DNA from: Spirochaetia bacterium
GTDB taxonomy: Bacteria > Spirochaetota > Spirochaetia > SZUA-6 > Bin103
Length of the DNA: 64,000 bases
Reading direction: 5' to 3'
Assembly: GCA_965203905.1 (NCBI GenBank)
Contig: CBDBDQ010000005.1
Location: forward strand, 3,232,001-3,296,000
The notes under the pieces are model-generated. The model saw only the letters and a list, made by a program, of their open reading frames with translations. It ran no database searches and was not told where the DNA came from. Below, one piece after another: positions 3,445 through 56,119 of this stretch. A program made the translations under genes and the position numbers. The stretch's first letter is position 1. Each line of letters opens with the position of its first letter.

Positions 3445-3454
3445 CCTTCGGCAC

Positions 3455-4363: not shown

Positions 4364-4437
4364 GTGGGTCTCCCGTGCTCTGTTCGCGTGCGCCGATGCT
4401 CGGATTCAGGTACGCATGTGCATCGCAAGGAAAATGA

Positions 4438-4469
4438 GCACCCCGGCGGGAATATTCCCACCGGGGTGC
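4438..4469 (-). terminator. Intergenic stem-loop after the binding-protein gene (partial terminator or mRNA stabiliser)
   Basis: Near-perfect inverted repeat GCACCCCGG-C-GGGAAT/ATTCCC-A-CCGGGGTGC, followed on the minus strand by TCATTTT. Confidence 0.65.
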
Positions 4470-4503
4470 ATGTTCTCTCGACGCCGGGAACGAAGAATGA
4501 GGT

Positions 4504-5811: not shown

Positions 5812-5946
5812 ACTGTCTCCTTGTAGCGAGCGTTCCTGATTGCCGGAATCCTCCGATTCTGGTAATCCGTGCACGTCAACAAAGTAACCCCCTCTGAGCA
5901 CAGTTTTGGATCAGCCAGATCAGGAATTCGGCAACACTGCGATGGT

Positions 5947-5975
5947 AGAGTACCCGGGGGGGGGGGGGAGGTCAA
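5947..5975 (-). promoter_or_regulatory. Sigma70-type promoter of the ABC operon with a poly-C spacer
   Basis: Minus strand reads TTGACC (5975-5970), 17-bp spacer T-C13-GGG, TACTCT (5952-5947). Confidence 0.65.
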
Positions 5976-6011
5976 GGGGCCGCCGCTCGGCTGCAGCCGC
6001 CACCGCGCCGG

Positions 6012-6338
6012 GTGACGCGCGTCAACGCGGGCTACCGCGAGCAGGCGCGTGCCGGAATGTATTACCTGACCCTGCGCCGGACCCTGACCTGCGAGGAATC
6101 ACCCTTCTTCCGCTACCTCACCGCCACCACCGGCGACCCGCGGGTGGGCGGGGCCGCCGGCGAGCGGCCGCGGGTGCGCTACCTGCCCGGCGAGCACTGC
6201 GCGCACCCGGCTGGAGCGCTGGTCGCCGCGGACACCCGTCAACTCCGCATCTCCTACGGTTTCAAGGAGCAGCCCCGCATCGACGCCGCCCTGCAGGTCA
6301 TGCGCGAAGCAATCCGCTACGCCGCCGCGGACGGATAG
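6012..6338 (+). pseudogene. 3' remnant of a PLP-dependent aminotransferase gene
   Basis: [51 protein letters not shown] resembles a class I/II aminotransferase C-terminal domain. No N-terminal part is in place. Confidence 0.6.
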
Positions 6339-10700: not shown

Positions 10701-10774
10701 AGGTTCCCCTCTTCCTCTTCCGGTAGCAAGCACAGGACATGCGTGCAACCGAGTGTACCGGAGTGGTACCGACC

Positions 10775-10923
10775 CTGTGAGAACATGTCAAGATTGCGCG
10801 GCAGCAGATCCGGGGCGACACCGCGTCCCTGGTCGGACACGGCAACCGCGACATGGGCGTCCTCGCCACCGCCGCGACCCGGATGGGCGAGGATCCGGCG
10901 CGTGCCGGGCGGCGTTGGCGAAG
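10775..10923 (-). pseudogene. Histidine kinase HATPase_c fragment
   Basis: Across frameshifts reads FANAARHAP (N box) ...HVAVAVSDQGRGVAPDLLP (G1 box). Confidence 0.55.
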
Positions 10924-11004
10924 CTACGCCTATTCCGCGTTGGTGACCCGTGGCAGGGACCAACGGTTCGCGCTCTGATCGACCTCTGATCGACCAGCGT
11001 GCTG

Positions 11005-11034
11005 TTGACGCGGGTGCGTCGGGCGGGCTATGGT
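11005..11034 (+). promoter_or_regulatory. pyr operon promoter
   Basis: TTGACG, 18 bp, TATGGT, just upstream of the PyrR site. Confidence 0.55.
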
Positions 11035-11041
11035 ACAGCCA

Positions 11042-11074
11042 TCCTTTAAGCCGGTCCCGCGAGGCCGGCAAGGG
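11042..11074 (+). promoter_or_regulatory. PyrR-binding RNA element
   Basis: CCTTTAA-GCCG-GTCCCGCGAGG-CCGGC-AAGGG closely matches the PyrR consensus (CUUUAA plus ARUCCNGNGAGGYU loop), upstream of pyrR. Confidence 0.85.
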
Positions 11075-11131
11075 TGAACATTGGATACTTTTCGTACGCG
11101 CGTAGACTTGGAACATTCGAACGGCCTGGAG

Positions 11132-11205
11132 AATCTCCGGCCCGCACTGCGGCGGACCCGATGCTGTCGGTTCCGCAAGCGTTGCGGGAGGCGGAGATTT
11201 TTTTT
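11132..11205 (+). terminator. Attenuator terminator of the pyr leader
   Basis: AATCTCCG..CCCGCA...TGCGGG...CGGAGATT stem ending in a run of 8 T, before pyrR. Confidence 0.75.
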
Positions 11206-11231
11206 GCCCGCTTGGCAACACGGAGTCGACC

Positions 11232-11801
11232 ATGGCTGAGCACCGGCAGCGGCACGCCGAGCGCCGCATTCTCGATGCGGCCGACCTGGCACGCTGCCTG
11301 ACACGGCTGGCTCACGAGGTGGTGGAGCGCAACCGCAGCATCGACCAGGTGGCGTTCGTGGGCATCCGCACCCGCGGCGTGCCGCTGGCACGGCGCCTGC
11401 AGCAGTTGGTACGCGAGATTACCGGCAGCGATCCGCCGCTCGGGATTCTCGACATCAGTCTGTATCGCGACGACCTTAGTCACGTGGCCAGCTCCCCCGT
11501 GGTCGGCAGGACGGAGATCGACTTCGCCCTGGACGAGCGGGTGGTGGTGCTGGTGGACGACGTGCTCTACACCGGGCGCACCACCCGCGCCGCGCTCGAC
11601 GCGCTGGTGGAGTTCGGGCGTCCGCGCCGGATTCAACTGGCCGTGGTGGTCGACCGCGGCCATCGCGAGTACCCGATTCGGGCCGACTACGTGGGCAAGA
11701 ACGTTCCCACCAGCAGTGAGGAGATCGTCCACGTGCGGCTACGCGAGACCGACACCAGGGAGGAGGTGGTCATTGCCTACCGAAACCAGCACCAAGGTTA
11801 A
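11232..11801 (+). CDS. pyrR: Bifunctional pyr attenuation regulator/uracil phosphoribosyltransferase
   Basis: [53 protein letters not shown]. Confidence 0.97.
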
Positions 11802-12891
11802 GGTGCGTTCCACTGCGGCGCCGGCCCGACCGCAAACGCAGCGGTCCCGGACCACGACTGCCGGCCCCGCCGCCCAGAGAACCGCCGCTCAGCCGGCCGC
11901 CAAGGTGGCCTGGACACGCAAGGATCTGCTGTCGCTGGAGGTGCTCAGCCGCGGCGAGATCGAGCTGCTGCTGGAGACCGCCGAGTCGTTCAAGGAGGTC
12001 TCCGCGCGCCAGGTGAAGAAGGTGCCTTCGCTGCGCGGCAAGACCATCGCCAACCTGTTCTTCGAGTCCTCCACGCGCACCCGCACCAGCTTCGAGCTGG
12101 CCGCCAAGCGCTTGTCCGCCGACACGGTCAACTTCCAGGGCTCCACCTCCAGCGTGCAGAAGGGGGAGAGCCTGGTCGACACCGCCAAGAACATAGAGGC
12201 GATGCAGGTGGACACGGTGGTGGTGCGGCATTCCTCGTCGGGAGCCGCCGAGCTGCTGGCGCGGGAGCTGGAGGCCAGCGTGGTCAACGCCGGCGACGGC
12301 ATCCACGAGCATCCCACCCAGGGGCTGCTGGACATCTTCACGATCCGCGAGCACCAGGAGCTGGAGGGCCTGCACGTGTGCCTGGTGGGCGACATCCTGC
12401 ATTCGCGGGTGGCGCGCTCCAACCTGTGGGGCCTGCGCAAGCTGGGCGCCCGCGTGACCGTGTGCGGGCCGCCGAGCCTGATCCCGCACGGCATCGAGGA
12501 GCTGGGCGCGGAGGTGTCCTACGACCTGGACGAGGTGATCGAGGAGGCCGACGTCCTCAACCTGCTGCGGATTCAGTTCGAGCGCCAGCGCGGGGCGTTC
12601 TTTCCGTCGGTGCGCGAGTACGCGGTGGAGTACGGCCTGTCGCGGGACCGCCTGCGGCGCGCCAAGGAAGGGCTGCTGGTGCTGCACCCGGGGCCGATAA
12701 ACCGCGGCGTGGAAGTGGCGGCGGAGGTGGCGGACGGTCCCCATTCGCTGATCCTGGACCAGGTGACCAATGGCGTGGCGGTGCGCATGGCGGTGTTGTT
12801 CCACACCACACTGACCCGCGAGGAAGAGGATACGCGGCCACCCGAAGCGGCGCGCGGCCGGCGTGCCGGCGGAGCTCGTGAAGATGGCTGA
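11773..12891 (+). CDS. pyrB: Aspartate carbamoyltransferase catalytic subunit
   Basis: [39 protein letters not shown]. The start codon is uncertain (TTG 11773 after AGGAGG). Confidence 0.96.
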
Positions 12892-14254: not shown

Positions 14255-15627
14255 ACGACAAGCCCGCACTGCTGGCGCTGGAGGATGGAGCCGTGTTCCC
14301 GGGACGAGCGGTGGGAGCGGACGGCGAGGTCTCCGGGGAGGTGGTGTTCAACACCGCCATGACCGGCTACCAGGAGATCCTCACCGATCCGTCCTACGCC
14401 GGACAGCTCGTCTGCCTGACCTATCCGTTGATCGGCAACTACGGCGTCAACGAAGACGACCCCGAGTCGCGGCAGCCGTGGACCCGCGGCCTGATCGTGC
14501 GCGAGCTGGCCGCCCGCCATTCCAACTGGCGCGCCACCGGCGACCTGGGCAGCTACCTGAAGCGCCACGGGATCGTCGGCATCGACGAGGTCGACACCCG
14601 CGTCAGTACCACCCGGAGGCCGCCCCCTCACCCGCCACCTGCGGCTGCACGGCGCCAAGACCGGGGTGATCTCCACCACCGACCTCGCCCCCGCGTCCCT
14701 GATCGCCAAAGCGCGGCAGGCGCCGAAGCTGGGCGAGCTCGACCTGGTGCGGGAGGTGGCGCCCGGCGCCATCGCCCCGCTGCGGCTGGCCGCGGACTCC
14801 TACGACGTGCTGGCCGACCAGCTCCCGGCGCAGGCGCATGCGGGACGCGGCAAGGCCGACCCGGTTGCAGCAGCCGCGACGGTCGGCGCCGCCACCGGCA
14901 GCGGCGCCGCGACGGCGGTCGTGGCAATCTGCTCCCAGAGAACCGTGATGTGGGGCCTTTAGAATGTTCGAAACGGGATGGTCATACGCGGCGTAAAGAT
15001 CGCGGACCCACCGGAGGCCGGCGCGCATCACGTGGTGGCGATCGACGCCGGCGCCAAGCACCACATCATGCGCCACCTGCGGCGGCGCGGCTGCCGCGTC
15101 ACCGTGGCGGCCCCGGGCCACGAACCTGCCTGACGGCAGTCGCGGATAAGCTTTGCCTCCGCCGCCGAGATCGCGGCCCTGCAGCCGGACGGGCTGTTTC
15201 TCTCCAACGGTCCCGGCGACCCGGAGCAGGCGCCCTACCTGGCGGACACCGTGCGCGAGCTGCTCGACGCCCACCGCGAGCTGCCGGTATTCGGCATCTG
15301 CCTGGGCCTCCAGATCATGAGCCTGGCCCTGGGAGCCAACATCTACAAGCTCAAGTTCGGCCATCACGGCGCCAACCACCCGGTGCGCGAGGAGCGCAGC
15401 GGCGTGATCTCGATCACCAGCCAGAACCACGGCTACGCGGTGGATGCCGAATCGCTGCCCGCGGACCTGCACGTCACCCACGTCAACCTCAACGACGGCA
15501 CCATCGAGGGACTGGAGCACCGCAGCCGTCCGGTGTTCGCGATCCAGTACCACCCGGAGGCCGCCCCCGGCCCCCACGAACGACGCCCAGTACCTGTTCG
15601 ACCGCTTCGTCACCGCCATGGAGCAAC

Positions 15628-41328: not shown

Positions 41329-41798
41329 GTGAAGCCTATCGCTACGGCGGCGCACGCGCGCTGGTGCGCCTCCACGAGCGCCACCTGTGGGAGTTCTGGG
41401 CCACCTGGTGCGAAGCACAGAACGCCAGGGTGCAGCTCCCCGAGACCGAGGATCCGAACTACGCCTCGCTGGAGGTGCTGCTGCACCACGTGTTGCAAAG
41501 CGCCCGCGGCTACCTGCAGTGGATCTGCACGCAGCTCCAGTTGCCCGATCCCGGCATCGATCGGGCGCCGCCGCCGGAACGCGCCCCCGACGAGGCGGCC
41601 GCCTACCTGGGGCACCTGCTGGAGCGCTGGCGCACGCCGCTGCGCGACGTGGCGCGGGAGGAGTTTCGCAAGCCGGTCCAGCAGGCGCTGACCGCCACCA
41701 ACATCGAGGCGATGCTGGAGCACGCGGTGATGCACCCGATCCGGCACACGTTCCAGCTTCGCAACCTGTTGGCGGAGCAGCAGGCGCTCGCGGAGTAG
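41325..41798 (+). CDS. DinB-like protein
   Basis: LLHHVL...MLEHAVMHPIRHTFQL metal-binding His pattern. Confidence 0.7.
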   Translation: MSEAYRYGGARALVRLHERHLWEFWATWCEAQNARVQLPETEDPNYASLEVLLHHVLQSARGYLQWICTQLQLPDPGIDRAPPPERAPDEAAAYLGHLLERWRTPLRDVAREEFRKPVQQALTATNIEAMLEHAVMHPIRHTFQLRNLLAEQQALAE

Positions 41799-41809
41799 CC
41801 GCGAAGCGA

Positions 41810-44596
41810 ATGGCCGCACGCCCCGGCAGAGCGAAGCGGCTCTATCTCATCGACGGTATGCCACTGGTGTACCGCGCCTACTTCGTGTTCCTGAACCGCC
41901 CCCTGATCACCGCCAACGGCTTCAATTCCTCGGCGGTGTATGGTTACACCACCTCGCTGCTGCAGATCCTCAACGACGAGCAGCCCACCCACTTGGCGGT
42001 GGTGTTCGACACCCCCGGTCCCACCTGGCGCGACCGCGAGTACGCCGACTACAAGGGCACGCGGGCGAAGGCGCCGGAGGACATCGGCGCCTCGCTGCCG
42101 CACGTGCGCCGGATCACCGAGGCGATGGGTCTGTCGGTGATCGCCCATGACGGGGTGGAGGCGGACGACGTGATCGGCACCCTGGCGGCGCGCGCGGAGG
42201 CGGCCGGCTTCGACACCTACATGGTGACGCTGGACAAGGACTTTGCACAGTTGGTCAGCGACCACGTGTTCCTCTACCGGGTGCCACGCATGGCGGGCGA
42301 TCCGCCGCAGGTCTACGACGTGGCCGGGGTGCGCGAGCGCTTCGGCGTGGAGCGGCCGGAGCAGGTGATCGACCTGATCGGGCTGGCCGGCGACAGCGTG
42401 GACAACATCCCGGGCGTGCCGGGGGTGGGGGAGAAGACCGCGCAGAAGCTGATCGCCCGGTTCGGCACGGTGGAGGCGCTGGTCGCCGGCACCGATCGAT
42501 TGAAAGGCAAGCAGCGCGAGAGGATCGAGACCCACGCCGCGCAGGCGCTGCTGTCGAAGCGCCTGGCCACCATCGACCGCGAGCTGGACCTGGAGCTGGA
42601 CCTGGAGCGGCTGGCGGTGCCGGCGCTGGATCCGCAGCGCGTCATTCCGCTGTTCCAGGAGTTCGAGTTCAGCACACTCGTCGAGCGCGTGTTCGGCGAA
42701 GGCGAGGGCGCGGCGGCGGCTGCGGCGCCCACCGGTGGTGGCGTCGAGGGCGCGGACCGGCTGCGCACGCTGGACGACGTTGCCCACGACTACCGTCTGG
42801 TGGAGGGAGCGCCGGCGCGGGCGGGGCTGGTCGAGGACCTGCTACAGCAGGAGGCGGTCAGCCTGTTCGCGGTGTGCGGCAGCGGTGACCCCAAGCGGGT
42901 GCCGCTGGCGGGCGTCGCATTCCGCTGGCAGGAGGGCGCCGCGGCCTATCTGCCGCTCTCCGAGGGGCGCGCCGCGGCTGCCGCCGAGCTGGGCGAGCTG
43001 GCGTCCTTCTGGGAACACCCGGAGATCGTCAAGGTCGGCCACGACCTGAAGCGCTGGGTCACGGCGCTGCGCTGGCACGGCATCGCCGTCCGCGGCCGGC
43101 TGCTGGACACGCGCCTGGCGCACCAGTTGGTGGAGTCGGAGGGGGCGCACGACCTGGCGCTGCTGGCCGAGCACTACCTGGGCTACGCGCCGATCGTGCC
43201 CGGTGAGGCAGCCGCCGCGCTGCTGAAGAGCCCGGCGCTGAACGCCGAGGAGCTCGCCGCGGCCGGTTTGCCTGCCGCCGAACTGGCGACCTACGCCGGT
43301 GAGCGCGCGGACGTAACCGCGCACCTGCTGGACGCCCTGCTGCAGGAGATCGACCGCTACGATGAGCGCGAGCTGTGGGAGCAGGTCGAGGTGCCGCTGA
43401 TGCCGCTGCTGGTGGATATGGAGCACACCGGAGTGGCGGTTCGCGTCGGCGCCCTGCGCGACTACTCGCTGGAGCTGGAGAAGGAGATCGCCGCCCACGA
43501 GGCGGATCTGTACCGCCTGGCCGGCGGCCCGTTCAACCTCAACTCGCCGAAGCAGCTCGGGGAGCTGCTGTTCGACCGCCTCAAGATCGCCGACAAGCCG
43601 AAGCGCACCCGTACCGGGCAGTACGTGACCACCGAGCAGGAGCTGACCCGGCTCGCCGACCGCCACGCGATCATCCCCGCCATGCTGGAGTACCGCGTGG
43701 TGCAGAAGCTGAAGTCGACCTACGTGGACGCGTTGCCCGACTCGGTGGTGGCGGAGACCGGGCGCATCCACACCACCTTCAACCAGCTGGTGGCCGCTAC
43801 CGGGCGGCTCAACTCCGAGAACCCCAACCTGCAGAACATTCCCATTCGCACCGACAAGGGGCGGGAGATCCGCCGCGCCTTCGTCGCCCCGGAGCCCGGC
43901 CAGGTGCTGCTGGCCGCCGACTACTCGCAGATCGAGCTGCGCATCATGGCGGCCATTACCGCGGACCCCGGGCTGGTGGAGGCGTTCGCCGACGACGTGG
44001 ACATCCACGCCGCCACCTCCGCCAAGGTGTTCGGCGTCCCGCTGCCGGAGGTGACCGCCGAGATGCGGCGGCGGGCGAAGATGATCAACTTCGGCCTGAT
44101 GTACGGCATGTCCGCCTTCGGTCTGGCGCAGCGCCTCAACATCGCCCGCGCCGAGGCGCGCGAGATCATCGAGCGCTACTTCGGGCAGTTCCCGAGGATC
44201 CAGCAGTACATGGGCGACACCGTGCTGTTCGCGCGCGACAACGGCTACGTCCAGACCCTGCGCGGCCGGCGCCGCTACCTGCGCGACATCCGCTCGCGCA
44301 ACCACGCCGCGCGCGCCGCCGCCGAGCGGGTGGCGATCAACGCCCCGATCCAGGGCAGCGCCGCCGACATGATCAAGATCGCTATGCTGGATATCGACCG
44401 CGAGCTGCGCGAGCGCGCTCTGGCGGCGCGGATGATCCTGCAGGTGCACGACGAACTGGTGTTCGAGGTGCCGCAGGCCGAGCTGCAGCCGGTGACGGAC
44501 CTGGTGACCCGCTCCATGCGCGATGCCCTCGACCTGGGCCGGGTGCCGGTGGTGGTGGAGGTGGGCACCGGCGCCGACTGGCTGGAGGCACACTGA
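41810..44596 (+). CDS. polA: DNA polymerase I
   Basis: LYLIDG..LVYRAYF, EADDVIGTLA, DYSQIELR, AKMINFGLMYG, LQVHDELVFE. Confidence 0.98.
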   Translation: MAARPGRAKRLYLIDGMPLVYRAYFVFLNRPLITANGFNSSAVYGYTTSLLQILNDEQPTHLAVVFDTPGPTWRDREYADYKGTRAKAPEDIGASLPHVRRITEAMGLSVIAHDGVEADDVIGTLAARAEAAGFDTYMVTLDKDFAQLVSDHVFLYRVPRMAGDPPQVYDVAGVRERFGVERPEQVIDLIGLAGDSVDNIPGVPGVGEKTAQKLIARFGTVEALVAGTDRLKGKQRERIETHAAQALLSKRLATIDRELDLELDLERLAVPALDPQRVIPLFQEFEFSTLVERVFGEGEGAAAAAAPTGGGVEGADRLRTLDDVAHDYRLVEGAPARAGLVEDLLQQEAVSLFAVCGSGDPKRVPLAGVAFRWQEGAAAYLPLSEGRAAAAAELGELASFWEHPEIVKVGHDLKRWVTALRWHGIAVRGRLLDTRLAHQLVESEGAHDLALLAEHYLGYAPIVPGEAAAALLKSPALNAEELAAAGLPAAELATYAGERADVTAHLLDALLQEIDRYDERELWEQVEVPLMPLLVDMEHTGVAVRVGALRDYSLELEKEIAAHEADLYRLAGGPFNLNSPKQLGELLFDRLKIADKPKRTRTGQYVTTEQELTRLADRHAIIPAMLEYRVVQKLKSTYVDALPDSVVAETGRIHTTFNQLVAATGRLNSENPNLQNIPIRTDKGREIRRAFVAPEPGQVLLAADYSQIELRIMAAITADPGLVEAFADDVDIHAATSAKVFGVPLPEVTAEMRRRAKMINFGLMYGMSAFGLAQRLNIARAEAREIIERYFGQFPRIQQYMGDTVLFARDNGYVQTLRGRRRYLRDIRSRNHAARAAAERVAINAPIQGSAADMIKIAMLDIDRELRERALAARMILQVHDELVFEVPQAELQPVTDLVTRSMRDALDLGRVPVVVEVGTGADWLEAH

Positions 44597-44846
44597 CCAA
44601 AGCCGAACGGCGCACCCTGAGCATATTTCGTGCTATCGTTGACCGATCACGTAGCTTGGACTCGATGGCGGTGGGACCTCTGGTAGATAACGACCTAGTG
44701 ACATTCCCCGGAACGATCGACTTACGTTCCAAGTGGCAACTACCGCGACCGGCCTTCGTTTCCGTGGTGCAAGACGAGACTTTGGCGACTCAATATAGCG
44801 GAACGATAGCCCAAGTACCCTTGAGACCTCATCTGATCCGTTGGAT

Positions 44847-46178
44847 ATGAATCCAAGTTCAATCGTGCTGGCCTCCCGCCAAGAAATACCCCGATACAGC
44901 GCCGACGAATCATGTGTACAGTTTAGAGACTGGACCGGTGGGCGTTCTGTATCTACTGTTGGAACCAACGCCGGTACTGATCTCTTACCGTTTCAGACAT
45001 GGCGCCGATTCAAGGAGGCGTTTGCTCCCGAACTCATTGAGAGGGCTGTGGCCGAGACACCCTCCCGAGTTCGACATATTGTTGATCCATTCGGTGGCTC
45101 TGGTACCACTGCCCTTGCTGCGCAGTTCCTCGGCACTCTTCCGACAACGATAGAGGTGAATCCCTACCTTGCTGATCTCATAGAGGCAAAATTGGCACCC
45201 ATCGATTTCAGCAGAGCTATCGAGCTATACCGACACATTGTTGAAGACGTAACTGAAAGTAGTATGGAATCTTCGCCAGTATTCAACGGCGCCCCCGCCA
45301 CCTTCGTCGAACCAGGAAAAGACGGTCGGTATGTCTTTTCGCAGGAAGTTGCTGGACGGATCCTGGCGTACCGAGCGGCTATTGAGAGAGTATCGGACCC
45401 CACGCACCGTAGACTCTTTCGTGTGGTGCTAGGGTCCACTGCTGTTCCCTCAAGCAATGTTGTTGTGAGCGGAAAAGGTCGCAGATACCGTATGGGTTGG
45501 AAAGAGCGTCGCCACTCGTCACATAGTGTAGACGATCTCTTTCGAAGTAAGCTGCTCCAAGCGCTGCATGACTTGCGTAAGTTCGCAGCTCGCCGATGCC
45601 TTCACTACCGCATCCTCCGTGGTGATGCGCGGGAACTTGCAGACCAGATTGGTCCCTACGACCTTGCTGTGTTCTCGCCTCCATATCCAAACTCATTCGA
45701 TTATACCGACGTATACAACGTAGAGCTATGGACGTTGGGATACCTCGACAGCGCCGGTGCGAACACGCGACTGCGTCACTCAACACTCAGTAGCCACGTC
45801 CAGCTAATCCGACGATTCGAACCAGGTTCGCTCCAGAGCCCAACCCTGAAGCGGACTCTAGACGCGCTTGCGGGCGTCCGAAACAAGCTATGGAGTCAGC
45901 ACATCCCGGAGATGATTGGTGCGTACGCCCACGATATGGAGATCGTGATGAGGAAGCTTGCGGGAGGAGTCCGTTCTCGCGGTCGGATCTACATCGTTGT
46001 AGGAGACAGCCGATATGCTGGCGTGGTCGTTCCGGCGAGTACTATAATATCGGAGATCGCACAGTCCATCGGTTTCAAGTTGGTCGGTTTAGAGTCGTGT
46101 CGGGCAATGCGAACGTCACCACAGCAGGGAGGAGAGTTTGATCTTGCAGAGACACTGCTTATCATGGAGTGGCCTTAG
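44847..46178 (+). CDS. Alpha-class amino-DNA methyltransferase (SPPY, likely m4C)
   Basis: FQTWRRFKEAFAPELI, VDPFGGSGTT (motif I) ahead of FSPPYPNSFDY (motif IV), IVVGDSRYAG. Lower GC than the flanks. Confidence 0.88.
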   Translation: MNPSSIVLASRQEIPRYSADESCVQFRDWTGGRSVSTVGTNAGTDLLPFQTWRRFKEAFAPELIERAVAETPSRVRHIVDPFGGSGTTALAAQFLGTLPTTIEVNPYLADLIEAKLAPIDFSRAIELYRHIVEDVTESSMESSPVFNGAPATFVEPGKDGRYVFSQEVAGRILAYRAAIERVSDPTHRRLFRVVLGSTAVPSSNVVVSGKGRRYRMGWKERRHSSHSVDDLFRSKLLQALHDLRKFAARRCLHYRILRGDARELADQIGPYDLAVFSPPYPNSFDYTDVYNVELWTLGYLDSAGANTRLRHSTLSSHVQLIRRFEPGSLQSPTLKRTLDALAGVRNKLWSQHIPEMIGAYAHDMEIVMRKLAGGVRSRGRIYIVVGDSRYAGVVVPASTIISEIAQSIGFKLVGLESCRAMRTSPQQGGEFDLAETLLIMEWP

Positions 46179-46197
46179 TAGAAGCGCGCCAAAGAGT

Positions 46198-47286
46198 TTA
46201 GATGCCGGTATAGCCCGAAGCTCTCGCTTCGCTCGCAGAGCCAAAGAGTGGTCGTATCTCCATTGAGGAGATTCCGCGATATTGGCGCAGGGCGTTTTTG
46301 ATGCTGGATGAGCGAAACAGATCGAGGCGTTTTTCTTTGCGAAGATCATAAATTTCGATTAGTGCCTCGGCAGCGCGACGGTTAGCGCGGTACGCCGAAG
46401 CTTGTTTGATGCCGTCCGTAATGGCGCTTTCATTGGTGCTTTGACTTACGGTTGATGGATTGGATGGGCGGTGTGAAGTCGTGAATGATTTAATTACCTT
46501 TAGTTCTATAATAGCCCAGTACTGCAACGGACCGCTTCCGACGGCGCTGAGCAAACGAACGTCTATTCTTCCGATATTCGTTGTGTCTTCGACTTCTGCT
46601 CGTAAGTTGCCATGGAACCATGAGCTGAGAGCCGTCTGTAGACTCAACTGGATGCTTTTTTCGGGTCTTTCCGCCGGAATGTATCGATTCCCATAGCGCG
46701 GTTTCCACACGCCGTCCGGGCAACACGAAGGCGTGAGGAGTCTTTGAATGTGAAAGTGGCGAAGTGCTTTCAAGAGCTCGGAAAGAGAGGCTGCGGGTTC
46801 GTAGTCGCGAATCGGGTCGTTCCTTGCGGCGTCTCGTGTTCCTGCAAGCCGTGTCACCATAGTCATTGTGTTTCGATAAACGATCACGACGGGAGAGCTG
46901 GTGAGGGACGCATCGTCGAGCCATTCAAGAATCCCGGTCTGGTCGGTTGGCAGGGGCATTGAGCGGCCGGCAGATGCATCGCAGTTGGTGAAGAAGAGTT
47001 GGCCAAGTAAGGGGGTTGCTGTTGCGAGAGGATCTGCGAAGGGTTTGGCTCCGTGGCGTTGTCCCACTTCGCGCGGGTAAGAGACCATCACAAAAACGGC
47101 AACGTCCTGCTCGCCTTCGTTCGGCCACCCCTGACGTGCTCGTTTTTCCACAAGAGATAGGATTGCTTGTGCGAACCGATCAGGAACCACGCCCTGTATA
47201 TTCGGTAGACTGGGAATAAGACTAGCAATAGCAGCGATGTCATTTTCGGCTACACCAGGTATTTGCGAAGTAGCGTCACGCGGCAT
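46198..47286 (-). CDS. Putative PD-(D/E)XK nuclease effector with an uncharacterised N-terminal domain
   Basis: EKSIQ..L...L, GRIDVRL, IIELKVIK, GIKQASAYR in the C-terminal half. Confidence 0.65.
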   Translation of the reverse strand: MPRDATSQIPGVAENDIAAIASLIPSLPNIQGVVPDRFAQAILSLVEKRARQGWPNEGEQDVAVFVMVSYPREVGQRHGAKPFADPLATATPLLGQLFFTNCDASAGRSMPLPTDQTGILEWLDDASLTSSPVVIVYRNTMTMVTRLAGTRDAARNDPIRDYEPAASLSELLKALRHFHIQRLLTPSCCPDGVWKPRYGNRYIPAERPEKSIQLSLQTALSSWFHGNLRAEVEDTTNIGRIDVRLLSAVGSGPLQYWAIIELKVIKSFTTSHRPSNPSTVSQSTNESAITDGIKQASAYRANRRAAEALIEIYDLRKEKRLDLFRSSSIKNALRQYRGISSMEIRPLFGSASEARASGYTGI

Positions 47287-47989
47287 GCATCAATCGTCCG
47301 AGATAGGATGCGTACAAATATAGTCTTTCGCCGGGCGAAAGGTTAGACTCGCCGGGAAGGAACGCACGGAAGCGTTCGGTGACTTGCCAACTACCATTCG
47401 CCTCATGATGATCAGTAGCCCATGCACCAAAGTCGACCACACTGTGCAGCTCTCCAGTGGATCGGTATGTGACGTCCTGACTCGCCGCCACGTCAATCTC
47501 TTCGTCTGGTAGGGACGCTAGCGCACGGGCGAGTTCAACGAGAAACTCATGAAATCTAACGTCCACTTTATCGAGAGCATCCTCTGGTCCTTGGGCGCCG
47601 AGTTTCTTCAACAACCCTTGAAGGTGCTTCGACCCAAAATCCAATGCATAGTATCCGATAGTCCGTGCACCGTACTCACCACGGCGAACAAAACGTACAT
47701 CGCTGATCTGAACAAGCCCAACAGCGACTAGATGGTCAAGTTCTGCTTGCAGATCAGGATAGTATGGCCCGCCCTCGGACCGATATATCTTCCCATCGAA
47801 CGGTACAAGATCCCAAACAGGACTGAGGACGTCCGAAAGATAAGCGTACGCATGAAGCCGGGGGGAGCTGAGTGGGGTTATAGCGGCGCGCTCGGCTGCC
47901 TCAAGCAGTAAGAGCAGCCGGCAACGTTGCTTCGTCTTTAACAGGAATTGATCGTATAGCTCTTCTTCAGTGTAGCTATCAGTCATCAA
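47276..47989 (-). CDS. Hypothetical winged-helix-like protein (ABC-3C middle component/SocA-like pattern)
   Basis: RLHAYAYL.D..., GPYYPDLQAELDHLVAVGLV. Overlaps both neighbouring genes. Confidence 0.6.
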   Translation of the reverse strand: MMTDSYTEEELYDQFLLKTKQRCRLLLLLEAAERAAITPLSSPRLHAYAYLSDVLSPVWDLVPFDGKIYRSEGGPYYPDLQAELDHLVAVGLVQISDVRFVRRGEYGARTIGYYALDFGSKHLQGLLKKLGAQGPEDALDKVDVRFHEFLVELARALASLPDEEIDVAASQDVTYRSTGELHSVVDFGAWATDHHEANGSWQVTERFRAFLPGESNLSPGERLYLYASYLGRLMHAA

Positions 47990-50001
47990 TTCACACCTAA
48001 AAGTGCGCTGTCGAGTAGTTCTCGGTAACGTTCACCGTCTTGCTGCAATGCAAGATTCGGAGCGGCTATCTGCATAAGATCTAGAACATGATCTAGCCTC
48101 ATAGCTGTGTCTCTTTGCGGAGCAGGTCCACCAAATAGCTCCGAAATAATCCCCATATTTGTGAGGTTACTTGTTAGGATTAGGCGGTTATTTCCTTGTG
48201 CCGAGAAATCATGAAGTGTTCTACCAATTCGCTCCATCGACACAGGGTCCAAACTTGCCTCTGGAGTCTCCATCACAAATGTGCTCGTCCCAAAAAACAC
48301 TTGCATTAGCGCTAGACGAAATGCGAGATCGATGATTTCACGCTGTGACTCCGACACTTCGTTCGGATCGATTCGTCGAACGAACCCGGGACGATCGGCG
48401 GCCTCCATCTCGGCGACAAATGCTGGCACTTCGATGCGGTCATGGCCGGGTGCCTGAAGATACCGAGGCTCCCGCTTGACTTGCGCAAGCCGAATGTTCT
48501 CTACAAGAAGAGTACGCGCTACATCCTGGAATGCAGTCAACAGCAAGTTCGACCTCTCCAAAATCGCACTTTGCCTATCACGGAGAAGGCTCTCGAGCTG
48601 CCGGAAGCGAGCAGCACGAGTTGCCTGCCAGCGACGAAGCTGAGTCTCCAGTGCACTTAGAGTCCCTTCGTACTCTCTAACGCTCCCTTCCGGCGCCAGT
48701 CTTGCTCTAAGCCGCCTCGCGGTACTCTCTCTATCCCGGAATGACTGCCGGACCTGCGACAGTGCATCGAGAGTGCTCTCATATTCGTGGACGCTACCAC
48801 GTAGCCGTCGTGACCTCGTTTCCTCCTCACGGTACGCACGCTCCACACGTTCTCGCGCACGCTCCAAATTTGCCTGTTCGAATACGTGCGACGGAATCAC
48901 CGCATCATGCTCTTTTGGATCAGCGCCACACACGGGACAATTCCCGCGTTCGATCCGGCTCTCAAGTTCCAATTGTGTTTCTTCCGCATCAGAGCTACAA
49001 ACTAAGCAGCGCCCATCTGTCATAATCCGGGAGAGGACGAGACGAGCGACTTCGTCCATACTTGGGAAGTATCGAGACAATGCGGTATACTTGAGCCGTT
49101 CGACCGCACCTACCGCTTCTTCGCGTTCGATTTTCGCTCGTTCAAGCTCAAGTCGTGCGTTTTTCCGCTCGGTGTCATGCTCATCAAGGAGAGCTTCAAG
49201 TCGGTTCGCTTCGATGATCTCTGCATCGAGGACCGCTTGCTCAGCCTCGAGTTGAGCGAGCAATCCAACGGTCTCGGCCTCCCGTTGTTTGAGTTCTGTC
49301 AAGTCCCGCTCGGTTGCACGTAGCCGTGCGTGTACGTTGCGTGCTTGGCTGTCTGCACTCTGCAGGAGCCTCTCTAGTTCTGCGACCTCTGAAGCAGCTT
49401 CTTTGGGAAGACAGAGTGTGCGAAGCAATTGTCGTTGAGCGTTAGTATCCCAAAGCGCTCCCGGGCGATTCTCGAGGAACAGTACGATGTGATGGAGGAC
49501 AAGCAAGACATCTACGAAATCTCCGAGTCCAAATAGCTCGGTGAGTTTGGTCTGAATCAGCTCTTCACGTCCCGCTTTGGAAGTTGGTATGTCGAGTAGA
49601 TTCCCATCAATACAGAGCGCCGTCAACGATAGGTTGTCGAGTCTTCTGGAAATCGTGATCTGTGTGTCGCCTATCGTTGCTGACAGCGATGCTTGGGCGT
49701 TTACGGCACCGTCGGCGACGCGATCGGCGAAGAACCTAGCTTGTTTCCGTCGAAGTGAGACGGGTGATCTCGGAAGGACGACATCGAGGGTCGCTGGCAT
49801 ACCATCGCTGGTGAGGTCGTAGGGACCGGTCAAGCACCGTAGGATCATAGTGATCAGCGTGGTCTTTCCAAGACCGTTGATGCCAGCGATCAGGGTGAGG
49901 CCGTTTGGGAACTGCCAACGGATCCCGCTGCCGCGGGGATGGCCGGGGAACAAGCGATAGTCGGTGACTTCCAACCGTGTGAAGATCGGTAGGTGGACCA
50001 T
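47986..50001 (-). CDS. Rad50/SMC-like ABC ATPase with coiled coil and a double CxxC hook
   Basis: GINGLGKTT (Walker A), coiled coils around CLVC...CPVC, VSESQREIIDLAFRLAL (signature), VMETPEASLD (Walker B/D-loop), TSNL. Confidence 0.85.
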   Translation of the reverse strand: MVHLPIFTRLEVTDYRLFPGHPRGSGIRWQFPNGLTLIAGINGLGKTTLITMILRCLTGPYDLTSDGMPATLDVVLPRSPVSLRRKQARFFADRVADGAVNAQASLSATIGDTQITISRRLDNLSLTALCIDGNLLDIPTSKAGREELIQTKLTELFGLGDFVDVLLVLHHIVLFLENRPGALWDTNAQRQLLRTLCLPKEAASEVAELERLLQSADSQARNVHARLRATERDLTELKQREAETVGLLAQLEAEQAVLDAEIIEANRLEALLDEHDTERKNARLELERAKIEREEAVGAVERLKYTALSRYFPSMDEVARLVLSRIMTDGRCLVCSSDAEETQLELESRIERGNCPVCGADPKEHDAVIPSHVFEQANLERARERVERAYREEETRSRRLRGSVHEYESTLDALSQVRQSFRDRESTARRLRARLAPEGSVREYEGTLSALETQLRRWQATRAARFRQLESLLRDRQSAILERSNLLLTAFQDVARTLLVENIRLAQVKREPRYLQAPGHDRIEVPAFVAEMEAADRPGFVRRIDPNEVSESQREIIDLAFRLALMQVFFGTSTFVMETPEASLDPVSMERIGRTLHDFSAQGNNRLILTSNLTNMGIISELFGGPAPQRDTAMRLDHVLDLMQIAAPNLALQQDGERYRELLDSALLGVN

Positions 50002-50568
50002 TCAGTCTTGTCGGGGGTCGGTTGAACGACGTTGGCCTAGGACCTGCCAGGTATGCTGGCGGCGGGTCCCGAAGCACAACCGCTGGCGGGCACCTCGTTG
50101 GATGGTGCAATTTGCAGTCATTTTCCTCTCCGCTAGTGCTCATAAGATAGCAAGTATCGACATACGCCACTACTAGGGGCGGTGCTGTAGAACATTGACA
50201 AGCTGATTCGGGCTGCTGCTTCAGAGTGCTCGCGTGGTGATTCCGAAAATCTGCGACGAGCTACGTAACTTGCTACGCAGTAGTGGAATAGTAGCACACG
50301 GCTCGAAGTTTCGCAGCTATCGGTTAAGTTGAAGGGTGACGCGACCGTGCGCGTCCGGTTGCCTCGTTTCATTAGCTCTCAGCGGCCGCGCACGTAGTCG
50401 AACTCCAGTTCGTCTCTTCTCTTCGAACCCGCTTCGTTGTGGTTGCGATACGCGGTAGATCGAGCGGGCAGTGGCGAAGGCACGACAAACCGGCAGCACC
50501 GGACGTATGGCGATGCACTGTACTCGCACACCTCAAGGCACAGAGACTGGCCTTCAACGCTCAACCAG

Positions 50569-51672
50569 CTACGTGTGGCGACGAACTTGCGCCTCCTGGC
50601 GCAGCAGGTGGTCGGCCAGCACCAGGTTGAACATGGCATCCGCCAGCGGCACGGCGCGCGGCAACACGCACGGGTCGTGGCGGCCGCGCGGCTTCAGGGT
50701 GATCTCGTTGCCCGCCTCGTCGACGGTCTGCTGCGGGCGCAGGATCGTGGCCGTGGGCTTGAAGGCGGCGCGCACCACGATCGCCTCGCCGTTGGAGATT
50801 CCGCCCTGCACGCCCCCGGAGCGGTTGCTGCGGGTGCGCACCCGCGCACCGTCGGGATGGTCACGGTCCAGGTAGAACAGGTCGTTGTGGGTGCTGCCGG
50901 TCATCCGCGTGCCGGCGAAGCCGGAGCCGATCTCGAACCCGCGGCAGGCGGGCAGCGACAGCAGCGCCTTCGCCAGGTCGGCGTCGAGCTTGTCGAACAC
51001 CGGCTCGCCGAGTCCGGGCGGAATGCCGCGCGCCACCGCCTCCACCACGCCGCCGAGCGAGTCGCCCGCCTTGCGCGCCCGCTCGATGCGTTCCTGGATA
51101 GCTGCCGCCGCGGCCGGATCGGGGCAGCGGGTGATGTGCGCCTCTACCGCGTCGCGGGTGACGCGGTCCGGGTCGACCTCGGCATCCACGTCGCTCACCT
51201 GCTTGACGTAGGACACGACCTCGGCGCCGCAGTTCAGGCGCAGCACCTTGGCGGCGATGGCGCCGGCCGCCACCCGCCCCACGGTTTCGCGGGCGCTGGC
51301 CCGGCCGCCGCCGCGCCAGTCGCGGCGACCGTACTTGGCGGAGTAGGTGTAGTCGGCGTGGGAGGGACGGAAGGCGGTGCGCATCTCGTCGTAGTCGCGG
51401 GAGCGCGCATCCTGGTTGCGCACCAGGATGTGAATCGCGGTGCCGGTGGTGCAGCCCTCGAATACTCCCGACAGGATCTCGGCGCGGTCCGCTTCCGCGC
51501 GCTGGGTGGTGATGCGGCTCTGGCCGGGCCGGCGGCGGTCGAGCTCGGCCTGCAGATCGGCCTCGTCCAGCGGCACTCCGGGCGGACAGCCGTCCACCAC
51601 GACGCCCACCGCGGGGCCGTGGGACTCGCCCCAGGTGGTGATGCGGAACAGGTGACCGAAGCTGCTTCCCAT
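50569..51672 (-). CDS. aroC: Chorismate synthase
   Basis: [48 protein letters not shown]. Confidence 0.97.
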
Positions 51673-53459: not shown

Positions 53460-54041
53460 GTGCTCGAACAACGGCTGCGCTTCCTGCTGGAGGCCGACAA
53501 GCTGAAGCAGGTGCTGCGACGCAACGTGATCCTCGGCAAGCAGCGCCGGGAAAATTCCGCCGAGCACTCCTGGCACCTGACGCTGATGGCCCTGGTGCTG
53601 GTCGACCACGCCGCCGTCCGCGACCTGGACCTGCTGCGGGTCCTGAAGATGCTGGTGGTGCACGACCTGGTGGAGATCGACGCCGGCGACACCTTCGCCT
53701 ACGACGAGGCGGCCAGGCGGGATCAGCAGGAGCGCGAGGAACGCGCCGCCGAGCGCATCTTCGCGCTGCTGCCGGCGGAGCAGGCGGCCGAGATGCGCGA
53801 CCTGTGGGACGAGTTCGAAGCGTCGCAAAGCCCGGAGGCACAGTTCGCCCTGGCCCTGGACCGCTTGCAGCCGATGCTCCTCAACTACTTCAACGGCGGT
53901 CCGGGCTGGCAGGAGCACCGCGTGACGGCGCGCCAGGTGCGGGCCGTCAACGCCTGCATGGAACGCGGCTCCCCGGAGCTGTGGAACTACGCGCGCGGAT
54001 TGGTCGACGACGCCGTCGAGCGCGGCTTCCTCGCGCCATGA
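53460..54041 (+). CDS. HD domain phosphohydrolase (HD_3 family)
   Basis: EADKLK.VLR, ENSAEHSWHL, HDLVEIDAGD, WDEFE, DRLQP. Confidence 0.9.
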   Translation: MLEQRLRFLLEADKLKQVLRRNVILGKQRRENSAEHSWHLTLMALVLVDHAAVRDLDLLRVLKMLVVHDLVEIDAGDTFAYDEAARRDQQEREERAAERIFALLPAEQAAEMRDLWDEFEASQSPEAQFALALDRLQPMLLNYFNGGPGWQEHRVTARQVRAVNACMERGSPELWNYARGLVDDAVERGFLAP

Positions 54042-54051
54042 GAAGAAACCC

Positions 54052-54345
54052 TTGAACTCGCCGCCGTTATCCGAATGGACCGCCAACAGCTCGAAGGGGA
54101 GCAGGTGGCGCACCACCAGGAGTTGCTGGAACGCCCATTTTCTGAACCTTGTTGTGCGCCGCGCGGAACTCCGTCGACTGGGTGCGGCGGTCCGTGGCCA
54201 TAGCGTGTAAACATTGTGTAAACAAACTCACCGGTCGTGGCCCCGCCGTCGTCGCCGACCAGATCAAGACCCAGGGTGCCGAGCGCGACATCCTCCCACT
54301 CGCTGAAGGTGCGGATCGGGATATGCAGCATCAGGCTGCCGGTGG
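54052..54345 (-). mobile_element. Degraded IS transposase/integrase-core (rve) fragment
   Basis: Across frameshifts: IPIRTFSEW...LDLV..DGG...GEF..T...TD..T..TEFRA..NK.QK....LPF.LL.VHSDNGGEF. Confidence 0.72.
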
Positions 54346-54489
54346 GCCGCTTCATATGAGGTGCGCAGCAGCCGATCGATGGTAGCTGCGCTGATGCAAC
54401 TCCAGCTTGGCGCGCAACTCGGGGGGTTGAGCGCGATCTTGCGCCTGCTGCGTACATCGCAACGCTCGTAGTTCGGTCATCGCCCTGAC

Positions 54490-55035
54490 GATGTGAATTT
54501 TTTCATCAATTTGTTGTAGAGAAAATATTTAGTGGCGCCGGTTTCCACAGTGTGCCTAGGAGAAACGTTCCATCGCGAAATGGCGAAACTTGTAGATTCG
54601 CGAACTTTCCGCCAATTCGCGACTTCGCCAGAGGAATTCGGTGCTTGGGCGAGGATTTCGGATCAACCCTGATCCTCGCCCCACATGTTGAATCTTTGCA
54701 CAAACCTTTGTAGGGCATCGATTTGTGTTCCCAAGGTTCTATAGACTAGATGACACTCCATCAGTCCGTTCGCGAAATGGCGGATCTCTTGTGGGTTTCG
54801 CGAACTGACACGCCAATTCGTGAATTTGACCGGATTGGTCCCTATCTCATTGCCATAGGATGCTACTGTTTCACCAATTTGTTGTAGATAGACGATTTAA
54901 TAGCGCCGGTTCTACAGTATGCACAGAAGGCCGATCCGTCGCGAATTGGCGAACTTGCAGATTTCGAGAAACCCGTCGCCGATTCGCGACTTCGCGAGAG
55001 AAAATTCGCTGCTTAGGCGAAGTCTGGGGTCAAAA
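54490..55035. repeat. Tandem array of three diverged ~170-195 bp non-coding units with conserved hairpins
   Basis: Units start near 54490, 54684 and 54859. Each has TTGTAG...GGTT(C/T)..A.AG and then TCGCGAA(A/T)TGGCG...CGCC(A/G)ATTCG(C/T)GA. Confidence 0.75.
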
Positions 55036-55043
55036 GCGAGGGA

Positions 55044-55072
55044 TTGACAGATGCGTTGGTGCCGGCCACGAT
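55044..55072 (+). promoter_or_regulatory. Candidate promoter of the betaine-type binding-protein gene
   Basis: TTGACA, 17 bp, CACGAT, ending 9 nt before ATG 55082. Confidence 0.45.
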
Positions 55073-55081
55073 GTCCGTGAG

Positions 55082-56119
55082 ATGACACGAGACCCGAAAC
55101 CATACGTCTTGACCATGTGTCTTGCGGTGGCGCTACTTTCCTGCCGCGGGCCGGCACTAGCGGATCCGGAACCGGCCGCTGACCCTGACTGCAACGGCAT
55201 TGATCGGCCATTGGTTTTCGCCGGCCTCGGCTGGGGAAGCGCTCAGCTCCACAACCACATCGCCGGCCAGATCCTGCACGCGGGTTTCGGCTGCGAGTAC
55301 GCGGACACACCGGGATCGACCACTCTATCGGTGCAGCGACTGGTACGCGGCGAGATTGACATCACCATGGAGATCTGGGTCAACTCCGCCCCCGATATAT
55401 TCCGTGACGCGGTCGCCGCCGGCGATGTGCTTGACCTTGGCCTGAACATGACCGCCCTTGAGATGTCGTTCCTGGTGCCGCGCTACGTGATCGAGGGAGA
55501 TCCGGAGCGCGGCATCGAGCCGATGGCGCCCGATCTGAAGTCGGTGGCAGATCTGCCGCGCTACATACACGTTTTCCAAGATCCCGAGCAGCCGGACAAG
55601 GGCCGCTACTACAATTGCCCCGTCGGCTGGAACTGCGCGGAGATCAACACCATGAAGCTGGCCGCGTACGGCCTTGAGGAATACTATACCAACGTTCGTC
55701 TGGACACTAACGCCGCGCTGGTTGCGGCAATTTCCGGCGCTTACGAGCGGGGCGAAGCGTGGCTCGGTTACTACTGGAGCCCGACTCCGTGGATCGGTCT
55801 CTACCCCATGATCCAACTCGAAGAACCGGAGTGGACTCAGGAGTGCTGGGACGGCGACCGTGGCTGCGCGTTTGCACCCGCGATCGTCGACATTGCCGTA
55901 AGCAAAGGATTTTCCGACAGCGCCTCGAAAGAGATGATCGAGTTCCTGCGCGCGTACGAGATGGACCACATGCTGGTCAGCGCGTATCTCGCTTACCAGA
56001 GCACCACCGACGCGGAATGGGTTGATATTGCGCGTCACTTCCTGAAGACCGAGCCCGAAGTGTGGACCGCCTGGGTGTCCGACGAGGTAGCCAGCCGTGT
56101 ACGGGCGGTATTCAACTAA
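55082..56119 (+). CDS. Glycine betaine/histidine-type ABC substrate-binding lipoprotein (OpuAC family)
   Basis: Lipobox LLSC, W.SAQLHN.IA, EIW, VPRYVIEGD..RGI...APDLKSV.DL, CPVGW.C, YYWSP. Confidence 0.88.
   Translation: MTRDPKPYVLTMCLAVALLSCRGPALADPEPAADPDCNGIDRPLVFAGLGWGSAQLHNHIAGQILHAGFGCEYADTPGSTTLSVQRLVRGEIDITMEIWVNSAPDIFRDAVAAGDVLDLGLNMTALEMSFLVPRYVIEGDPERGIEPMAPDLKSVADLPRYIHVFQDPEQPDKGRYYNCPVGWNCAEINTMKLAAYGLEEYYTNVRLDTNAALVAAISGAYERGEAWLGYYWSPTPWIGLYPMIQLEEPEWTQECWDGDRGCAFAPAIVDIAVSKGFSDSASKEMIEFLRAYEMDHMLVSAYLAYQSTTDAEWVDIARHFLKTEPEVWTAWVSDEVASRVRAVFN

Follow-up and report, generated by a model that had tools for sequence, protein, structure and literature searches.

Between polA and aroC, a 64,000-nucleotide stretch of a Spirochaetia bacterium genome (NCBI GenBank assembly GCA_965203905.1, contig CBDBDQ010000005.1, positions 3,232,001 to 3,296,000 of the forward strand; this whole stretch is called the window, and positions are counted from its first letter) carries a low-GC (guanine plus cytosine) island with exactly four intact genes. 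They encode a DNA methyltransferase (MTase), a PD-(D/E)XK nuclease, a small middle protein, and a Rad50/SMC-like ATPase that resembles LmuB of the Lamassu systems. The four genes are inherited together across phyla, as a single unit. This cassette belongs to neither Lamassu nor type II restriction-modification (RM), because the Lamassu orders are reversed and no MTase is found there, and because type II enzymes work without an ATPase or adaptor. With a probability of roughly 0.6, the cassette is an RM-like mobile defence system whose restriction half is a Lamassu-type complex, in which methylation would mark self and the complex would license the nuclease on unmethylated DNA. The four genes are arranged as follows:

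44841/44847-46178, plus strand: MTase, 445 aa from TTG 44841 (443-445 aa, with ATG 44847 as the alternative start)
46198-47286, minus strand: nuclease effector, 362 aa
47276-47989, minus strand: middle component, 236-237 aa
47986-50001, minus strand: LmuB-like ATPase, 671 aa

An earlier note on this DNA had described four intact open reading frames (ORFs) at these places, which the ORF list and the translations confirm. Its 11-nt overlap at 47276-47286, in which the stop of the middle gene and the ATG of the nuclease gene lie, is exact. The MTase gene is convergent with the nuclease gene, as it had proposed, with stop codons at 46176-46178 and 46198-46200 that are 19 nt apart. For the junction between the ATPase and middle genes, the coupling that it described stands, but the letters are not the ATGA that it gave. 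The ATPase stop TGA occupies 47988-47986, and the middle gene starts with either TTG at 47989 (TTGA) or ATG at 47986 (TGATG). The three minus-strand genes are, as read from their sequence, translationally coupled.

The linkage of the genes was followed from both sides. A forward scan, in which the ATPase alignment was compared with one genome per species, yielded 25 loci (loci and related genomes carry L numbers) from Gamma- and Alphaproteobacteria, Bryobacterales, Cytophagales, and Myxococcota. Cultured carriers among them are Qipengyuania benthica DY56-A-20 (L009), Mesorhizobium sp. B2-4-3 (L016), Pseudoxanthomonas sacheonensis BE107 (L020), and Luteimonas sp. R10 (L022). The middle gene adjoins the ATPase gene in 25/25 genome loci, and the order ATPase, middle protein, nuclease is kept in the window and in all 25. 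The MTase is present in 24/24 genome loci with enough sequence (L015, a 3.3-kb contig, is left out of this count). It follows the nuclease gene in convergent orientation in 23 of these 24 and is co-directional and upstream in L018. Both loci from a plasmid collection (2/2), which are large secondary replicons of Burkholderia and Azospirillum, carry the cassette as well. The reverse scan compared the MTase alignment with metagenomes and gave 299 confirmed matches, of which 80 were kept and 74 had at least 300 nt beyond the MTase. In 72/74 of these metagenome loci, profile searches detect the nuclease, middle protein, and/or ATPase beside the MTase. The exceptions are L053, where an IS66 transposase abuts the MTase, and L071, where a different operon is found. 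An intact triplet without the MTase occurs in 0/26 loci. The linkage of ATPase homologues to MTase and nuclease, which the earlier note had made central to its proposal, is thus borne out by genomes, plasmids, and metagenomes. Carriers overall comprise Alpha-, Beta-, and Gammaproteobacteria, Bryobacterales, Cytophagales, Myxococcota, and the host of the window.

Over 20 loci, the protein distances correlate with a Spearman rho of 0.89-0.93 within the triplet and of 0.75-0.76 between the MTase and the triplet genes, values that are descriptive only, as related sequences are not independent. The window nuclease finds no match by tblastn in L018, L020, L022, and L024. Transitive BLAST places the genes of L020, L022, and L024 in the nuclease family, Pfam PDDEXK_9 is matched by the L018 protein, and all four nucleases show the invariant catalytic columns in the alignment. 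The middle-protein family forms 387 clusters at 50% identity among 1.84 billion proteins, and the cassette family is rare but widespread. Searches of phage records and viral contigs, made with exact peptide patterns or tblastn only, gave no match to the cassette, an outcome that is neutral for its interpretation. A Pfam scan of 121 flanking ORFs revealed no fifth conserved partner. An optional fifth gene is nevertheless seen in 9/25 genome loci (L004-L006, L008, L009, L011, L016, L017, and L019; ~15150-15500, plus strand), where a ~107-aa Xre-like helix-turn-helix (HTH) gene is divergent from the MTase gene. Weak candidates for it are present in L025 and L021, and it is absent from the window.

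Four copies of the cassette are decayed. The restriction half is damaged and the MTase ORF is whole in each of them:

L053, 6719-7933: IS66 transposase that replaces or truncates the nuclease half
L059, 9069-13429: IS66 transposase that replaces or truncates the nuclease half
L003, 12292-13938: 548-aa ORF without a Pfam match inside the middle gene
L029, 6827-9027: split ATPase

This one-sided decay, together with the lack of any intact triplet without the MTase, is what would be expected of an MTase that serves the nuclease module as its antidote.

The triplet exists in two ancient subtypes, whose ATPases are ~28-30% identical to each other. The first is found in the window, in L001-L019, and in L021; the second in L020, L022, and L024. 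Both subtypes, with one copy each, lie on either side of a lone MTase gene in L023 (5873-16168), L025 (5948-15018), and L028 (692-10815), and the ATPases of these three loci are each 40-56% identical to their own subtype elsewhere. Since two subtypes flank one MTase, the methylation mark seems to be a shared currency for different sensor-nuclease sets.

Some single loci show further arrangements. In L071 (7896-13495), a member of this MTase family faces another three-gene operon (254, 292, and 833 aa) in convergent orientation, and a KaiC/RecA-like ATPase domain is seen in the 833-aa protein (Pfam ATPase, 8e-13). This operon may provide the same mark with another restriction module. L029, an Azospirillum secondary replicon, has Mu/Tn7-like transposition genes (rve/Mu-transpos_C, TniB) beside the cassette at 3306-6253 and 10774-12348, and a KAP-family NTPase gene lies between its third gene and the MTase gene. 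A 137-aa HNH endonuclease ORF is located between the MTase gene and a divergent nuclease gene in L087 (9538-9951). In L001 (6286-6642), a metagenome-assembled genome (MAG) of the Gammaproteobacteria, a DUF6527 protein (3.7e-22) is encoded upstream of the cassette.

The ATPase matches the PADLOC LmuB model PDLC03859 with 5.4e-18 over protein residues 205-612 and profile positions 187-584 of 611, a match that spans the coiled coil and the C-terminal head. Its Pfam matches to SMC_N (1.8e-7) and AAA_23 (6.3e-5) are both under the cut-off, and a sequence search of the PDB with the ATPase profile gave no significant match, the solved LmuB included. The motifs were compared in an alignment of 20 sequences, which consists of the window ATPase and 19 from other species. 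Walker A is GINGLGKTT at residues 40-48, with GxNGxGKTT conserved, the Q-loop is NAQ at 187-189, with AQ conserved, and the conserved signature is VSESQ at 549-553. The Walker B/D-loop is METPEASLD at 577-585 of the window protein; this form is present in 18/20 ATPases and IDAPESSLD in 2/20. The catalytic glutamate is missing from 20/20 ATPases and replaced by threonine or alanine, and the H-loop histidine is also absent. The apex of the coiled coil holds a zinc hook that is built from CLVC at 332-335 and CPVCG at 355-359 (C332/C335 and C355/C358). Its four cysteines (CxxC, ~19 residues, CxxC) are conserved in 20/20 ATPases. All motifs quoted earlier (SESQ, ETPEASLD, and the double CxxC) are therefore found, and SESQ and CxxC are kept throughout the alignment. 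Because the ATP-binding motifs are kept and the catalytic glutamate and H-loop histidine are missing, the ATPase looks like a binder and switch rather than a fast hydrolase.

The middle protein has no match in Pfam, PADLOC, or NCBIfam. Profiles of the middle protein and of the nuclease give no significant match against PDB sequences, and a Foldseek search of the PDB returned nothing at E <= 0.001 for the model of either protein. The AlphaFold2 (AF2) model of the middle protein has a predicted local distance difference test (pLDDT) score of 87.7 and contains a winged helix that is followed by a helical C-terminal part. Fold matches for both proteins were taken from a wide search with VIA-align, in which Z 7-8 is often reached by unrelated folds. 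The best match of the middle protein is the DarG fragment 7yk3_D (Z 10.7, 150 aa, root-mean-square deviation (rmsd) 4.1), which lies 2.7 above the next. Winged helices of the origin recognition complex score Z 7.3-8.0, and a Wadjet JetABC chain scores Z 6.3. The two LmuC chains 9ny5_C (Z 6.6, 137 of 171 aa, rmsd 3.8) and 9hqx_d (Z 6.5, 129 of 164 aa, rmsd 3.7) tie with generic winged-helix matches. The 7YK3 fragment is the toxin-binding inhibitory domain at the C terminus of DarG, which is homologous to DUF4065 according to PMC13621843. The SocA_Panacea lead from the Atlas is weak for the middle protein (0.86, below 0.9), and the Pfam model SocA_Panacea PF13274 has no middle-protein match at E up to 1. 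Because the Z-scores lie in the range reached by unrelated folds, the resemblances of the modelled middle protein to LmuC and DarG are leads.

A direct contact between middle protein and nuclease is predicted with an interaction prediction score from aligned errors (ipSAE) of 0.87 in three runs, and the best of 3 controls scores 0.00. At least 95% of the contacts agree between the runs, and the partner has a pLDDT of at least 88. The same mark is reached by 58/80 solved complexes and by 2/110 mismatched pairs, counts that are only rough because own alignments were used. The predicted contacts on the nuclease lie in its N-terminal domain (residues 7-31 and 69-108) and at residues 231-256, which adjoin the catalytic E233 and D242 in the predicted complex. 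On the middle protein, the predicted interface comprises residues 33-39 and 199-233. The middle protein is thus predicted to clamp the N-terminal domain of the nuclease, and the modelled contacts are consistent with a sequestered, inactive enzyme. In Lamassu, LmuA is held sequestered and inactive, as stated in bioRxiv 10.1101/2025.06.23.660979, which gives the stoichiometry of that complex as LmuB2:LmuC1:LmuA1.

The AF2 model of the nuclease (pLDDT 90.3) shows two domains, an N-terminal α/β docking domain at ~30-160 and a C-terminal PD-(D/E)XK domain at ~165-350. The best fold match of the C-terminal domain is CdiA-CT 4g6u (Z 8.7, 131 aa, rmsd 3.2), and the restriction enzymes OkrAI (Z 8.0), BstYI (7.8), BglII (7.5), and BamHI (7.2) score slightly lower. 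NucC, McrC, and SfsA are also among its matches, and the McrC and AspBHI folds reach Z 5.5-6.7. In Pfam, PDDEXK_9 is matched with 1e-3, under the cut-off. An alignment of 22 nucleases has E233, G239-R240-x-D242, E261-x-K263, and Q295 as invariant residues (22/22), and D314/R316 are also listed as invariant. Its most divergent members, with 15-21% identity, still keep the catalytic columns. The N-terminal domain (window 46800-47200) weakly resembles the DisA/CdaA diadenylate-cyclase (DAC) fold, with Z 6.0-6.8. An RHR-like pattern is a motif of DAC enzymes, and residues 1-160 contain no invariant acidic, RHR-like, or catalytic-looking column in the 22 sequences.

The MTase matches Pfam N6_N4_Mtase (2.1e-6, above the cut-off) and the PADLOC model MTase_II PDLC03224 (3e-41). 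Its motif I, DPFGGSGTT, is followed by an invariant SGKGRRYR block and then by motif IV, SPPYPNSFDYTD, which is the order of the alpha class; the beta-class chain 2zie has the permuted arrangement. Both DPFGGSGTT and SPPY occur unchanged in 22/22 MTases. The predicted activity is that of an exocyclic-amino (N4-C or N6-A) DNA methyltransferase. SPPY is usually tied to N4-cytosine enzymes. The winged-helix middle protein, the PD-(D/E)XK nuclease, and the alpha-order MTase had all been called before from the letters, and each of the three assignments is upheld.

The island that harbors the cassette is an insert at window 44599-50568, with a length of 5,970 bp and a GC content of ~54%. In the GC profile of the window, the content falls from ~0.70 in the surroundings to 0.51-0.56 over 44.5-50.5 kb. 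The profile and the Pfam matches of the flanking genes confirm the lower-GC block between polA and aroC that had been described. Outside of the four genes, the features are:

41387-44596, plus strand: polA (Pfam DNA_pol_A, 1.7e-153)
50002..50568, minus strand: non-coding stretch of 567 nt with lower GC, upstream of the ATPase gene
ends at 50569, minus strand: aroC (Chorismate_synt, 1.6e-138)

polA and aroC are convergent on either side of the island, and the window aroC is ~70% identical to its nearest named relatives, proteins from Gemmatimonadota MAGs, which marks the host as an environmental bacterium. In 4/5 genomes of the same genus (L112-L115), blastn places the end of polA only 24-113 nt from the end of aroC. 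In the fifth, L111, blastn does not see aroC within 1.5 kb of the polA end. A search of 40 related genomes gave no real match to the ATPase; the single match is generic (E 7.8e-4) and covers residues 575-669, the last 95 residues. Because of its low GC, the empty site in relatives, and its absence from 39/40 relatives, the island is, on sequence grounds, horizontally acquired foreign DNA. A transfer RNA search of the window for an integration signature found none, a repeat search revealed no clear terminal repeats at the island boundaries, and there is no integrase among the island genes.

The non-coding stretch at 50002-50568 is presumed to be the promoter region of the three-gene operon, and a terminator-like hairpin for aroC is located at 50502-50490. 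A consensus scan of the stretch gave no convincing sigma-70 site, and the promoter and terminator scan is no better than shuffles (5 promoter-like hits versus a mean of 3.3, and 7 terminator-like hits versus 4.8). The small ORFs at 49736-50170 and 50379-50639 have no Pfam match. A 111-aa ORF at 44633-44968 on the minus strand, upstream of the MTase gene, has no significant match. It was rejected as an HTH controller, as the HTH profile has no match anywhere in the window. A second low-GC patch is present a few kb downstream of the island at window 54000-55500 (0.55 versus ~0.66-0.70 around it).

Among known systems, PADLOC 2.0.0 recognises only the ATPase (as LmuB) and the MTase. Two of the four proteins have no model match in Pfam, PADLOC, or NCBIfam, and a full-text literature search, with supplements outside its scope, found no description of an MTase-coupled Lamassu-like system. 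The earlier note had not recognised the locus as a named system, and the analysis agrees that no described system matches it in full, since models for the middle protein and the nuclease are absent from PADLOC 2.0.0.

The cassette recalls Lamassu type II, the ABC-three-component (ABC-3C; ABC, ATP-binding cassette) systems, and DdmABC, with which it shares a Rad50/SMC-like ATPase whose coiled coil is short and bears a CPxCG hook. LmuB has ~650 aa, short coiled coils, in many cases a CPxCG hook, and a glutamate-to-glutamine change in Walker B (PMC10586767 section 8), and the cassette ATPase has 671 aa. Both lack the catalytic glutamate of Walker B, for which LmuB has glutamine and the cassette threonine or alanine. 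Both also have a small globular middle component and an effector that combines an enzymatic with a docking domain (bioRxiv 10.1101/2025.06.23.660979 for the Lamassu side), and predictions for the cassette have the middle component holding the effector. The differences are of several kinds. The genes are ordered B-C-A in the cassette, whereas Lamassu has lmuA-lmuC-lmuB. The cassette effector has its docking domain at the N terminus and its nuclease at the C terminus, whereas LmuA has the enzymatic domain first and the docking domain last. Each chain of the cassette ATPase has four hook cysteines, no cassette protein is matched by the LmuA and LmuC models of PADLOC, and, most importantly, the cassette has an obligate DNA methyltransferase. 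Section 8 of PMC10586767 describes Lamassu with the effector gene first and no MTase, which agrees with the contrasts that the earlier note had drawn.

Type II RM is resembled in other respects. The genes for an amino-MTase and a PD-(D/E)XK nuclease converge, some copies have a small HTH gene by the MTase gene as in RM systems with a controller, and the MTase is retained while the nuclease half decays. Unlike a type II enzyme, however, the cassette nuclease is invariably accompanied by an SMC-like ATPase and an adaptor, and it carries a docking domain. Type I, type III, and ISP enzymes use superfamily 2 (SF2) motors, whereas the cassette ATPase is of the ABC/Rad50 type.

Three further groups share single traits with the cassette. 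MADS (mad1-8) likewise combines a DNA MTase, an ABC-type ATPase, and a nuclease in one defence system, and weak PADLOC matches to mad2 (7.8e-6) and mad3 (8.1e-8) were obtained, with none for the nuclease or the middle protein. The MAD3-MAD4 module is related to the OLD family, according to PMC13662399. Membership in MADS was rejected, as eight genes and an OLD-like module stand against four genes, a zinc-hook ATPase, and a PD-(D/E)XK nuclease. The DarG C-terminal domain and SocA-Panacea (DUF4065) are similar to the middle protein in their fold match and in the direct binding of an enzyme that is predicted for it. They differ in that the middle protein has no Pfam match, that no macrodomain or such toxin partner is present, and that its partner in the cassette is a nuclease within an SMC-like complex. 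Wadjet and the DndD/PbeC/SspC proteins also employ SMC-family ATPases for the recognition of foreign DNA. The ATPase gives weak PADLOC matches to DndD and PbeC at the level of the P-loop (E 3e-4 to 6e-3). Wadjet and Dnd/Pbe/Ssp were rejected, as the cassette contains no Toprim JetD, kleisin, or sulfur-modification genes. JetC is about twice as long as the cassette ATPase.

In the proposed mechanism, the host chromosome would receive N4-methylcytosine (m4C) or N6-methyladenine (m6A) from the MTase as its self mark. The zinc-hook ATPase, as a dimer and together with the middle protein, would hold the nuclease inactive, with ATP binding as a slow switch rather than a motor. Contact of the complex with unmethylated invading DNA, perhaps at its ends in the manner of Lamassu, would license the nuclease to cut DNA without the mark. 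The methylated chromosome would be spared, because the nuclease is proposed to cut only DNA that lacks the mark, and the death of the cell would not be required. The earlier note had likewise read the locus as a hybrid in which methylation marks self or is sensed. The linkage of the genes and the lack of a full match to a described system, on which it had made this reading depend, stand; the role of methylation as a self mark or sensed signal is what we infer.

Several observations weigh against the proposed mechanism. The fold scores are middling at Z 6.5-10.7, with unrelated folds often at 7-8. The defence-island context is weak, because only few of the 121 flanking ORFs are mobile or defence genes: they include 4 integrases, 2 Eco57I-type methylases, and 2 Xre/MbcA antitoxins, with ArdC, RepB, and AbiEii once each, and several are housekeeping genes. 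Among the four proteins, mean pairwise identity is highest for the MTase (0.52) and lowest for the nuclease (0.31), and even the region of the MTase in which target recognition is expected holds an invariant block. A conserved MTase with a variable nuclease would be unusual for site-matched restriction, in which both must share a sequence specificity. The pattern is easier to reconcile with a methylation-reading sensor or with a methylation motif that is short or frequent.

The strongest rival, which is distinctly less probable, is a Lamassu-type abortive infection system. The ATPase complex would sense DNA ends or hairpins just like Lamassu and release an indiscriminate nuclease, and the MTase would be a mere antidote to leakage or an addiction factor that plays no part in telling self from foreign. 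The LmuB hallmarks of the ATPase speak for it, as does the modelled resemblance of the middle protein to LmuC and to a toxin-binding antitoxin domain. The poor conservation of the nuclease and the high conservation of the MTase can also be counted in its favor, and the asymmetric decay suits an antidote as well as a self mark. If methylation protects the chromosome from the nuclease, however, an unmethylated invader becomes the preferred substrate, and the antidote explanation collapses into the proposal that methylation marks self. Canonical Lamassu moreover needs no MTase as described in section 8 of PMC10586767, which implies some methylation sensitivity in the cassette nuclease.

It is unlikely that the cassette serves primarily something other than defence, either as a selfish addiction or stabilisation module or as a repair-like Rad50/nuclease module with an epigenetic MTase. 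RM-like units are known to behave selfishly. The core-gene context without defence neighbours in the window would suit this explanation, and so would the mixed flanks in other loci, which include TnsB/TniB (L029), RepB, and ArdC. Selfish behaviour and defence are compatible, however, and defence systems supply the closest relatives of every component family (LmuB, type II MTases, and restriction-type nucleases). A repair module is further opposed by the lack of a Mre11/SbcD-type partner in the cassette. A methylation-dependent (type IV-like) nuclease complex, or an MTase that is an unrelated neighbour, is scarcely credible: some PD-(D/E)XK enzymes do act on modified DNA, as the McrC and AspBHI fold matches recall, but a nuclease that attacks the mark of its own obligate neighbour would be suicidal, and chance proximity is excluded by the 24/24 and 72/74 linkage and by the convergent geometry conserved across phyla.

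Beyond the proposal that methylation marks self and an ATPase complex licenses the nuclease, a more specific version is put forward only tentatively. The ATPase complex itself would read the methylation state of DNA, and a Lamassu-type sensor would use the mark, in place of DNA ends or topology, to tell self from non-self, which would make the defence non-abortive. If this methylation-gated reading is true, the MTase would be a portable self-mark hub for interchangeable restriction machines (L023, L025, L028, and L071). For Lamassu and other SMC-based defence, it is a question how a Rad50/SMC-like sensor separates foreign DNA from the chromosome and whether the cell must die. The obligate pairing of an MTase with a Lamassu-type module is a natural and testable case in which an epigenetic mark may be the answer. 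It would add an RM architecture in which an ABC/SMC-type ATPase replaces the helicase-type motors of types I and III.

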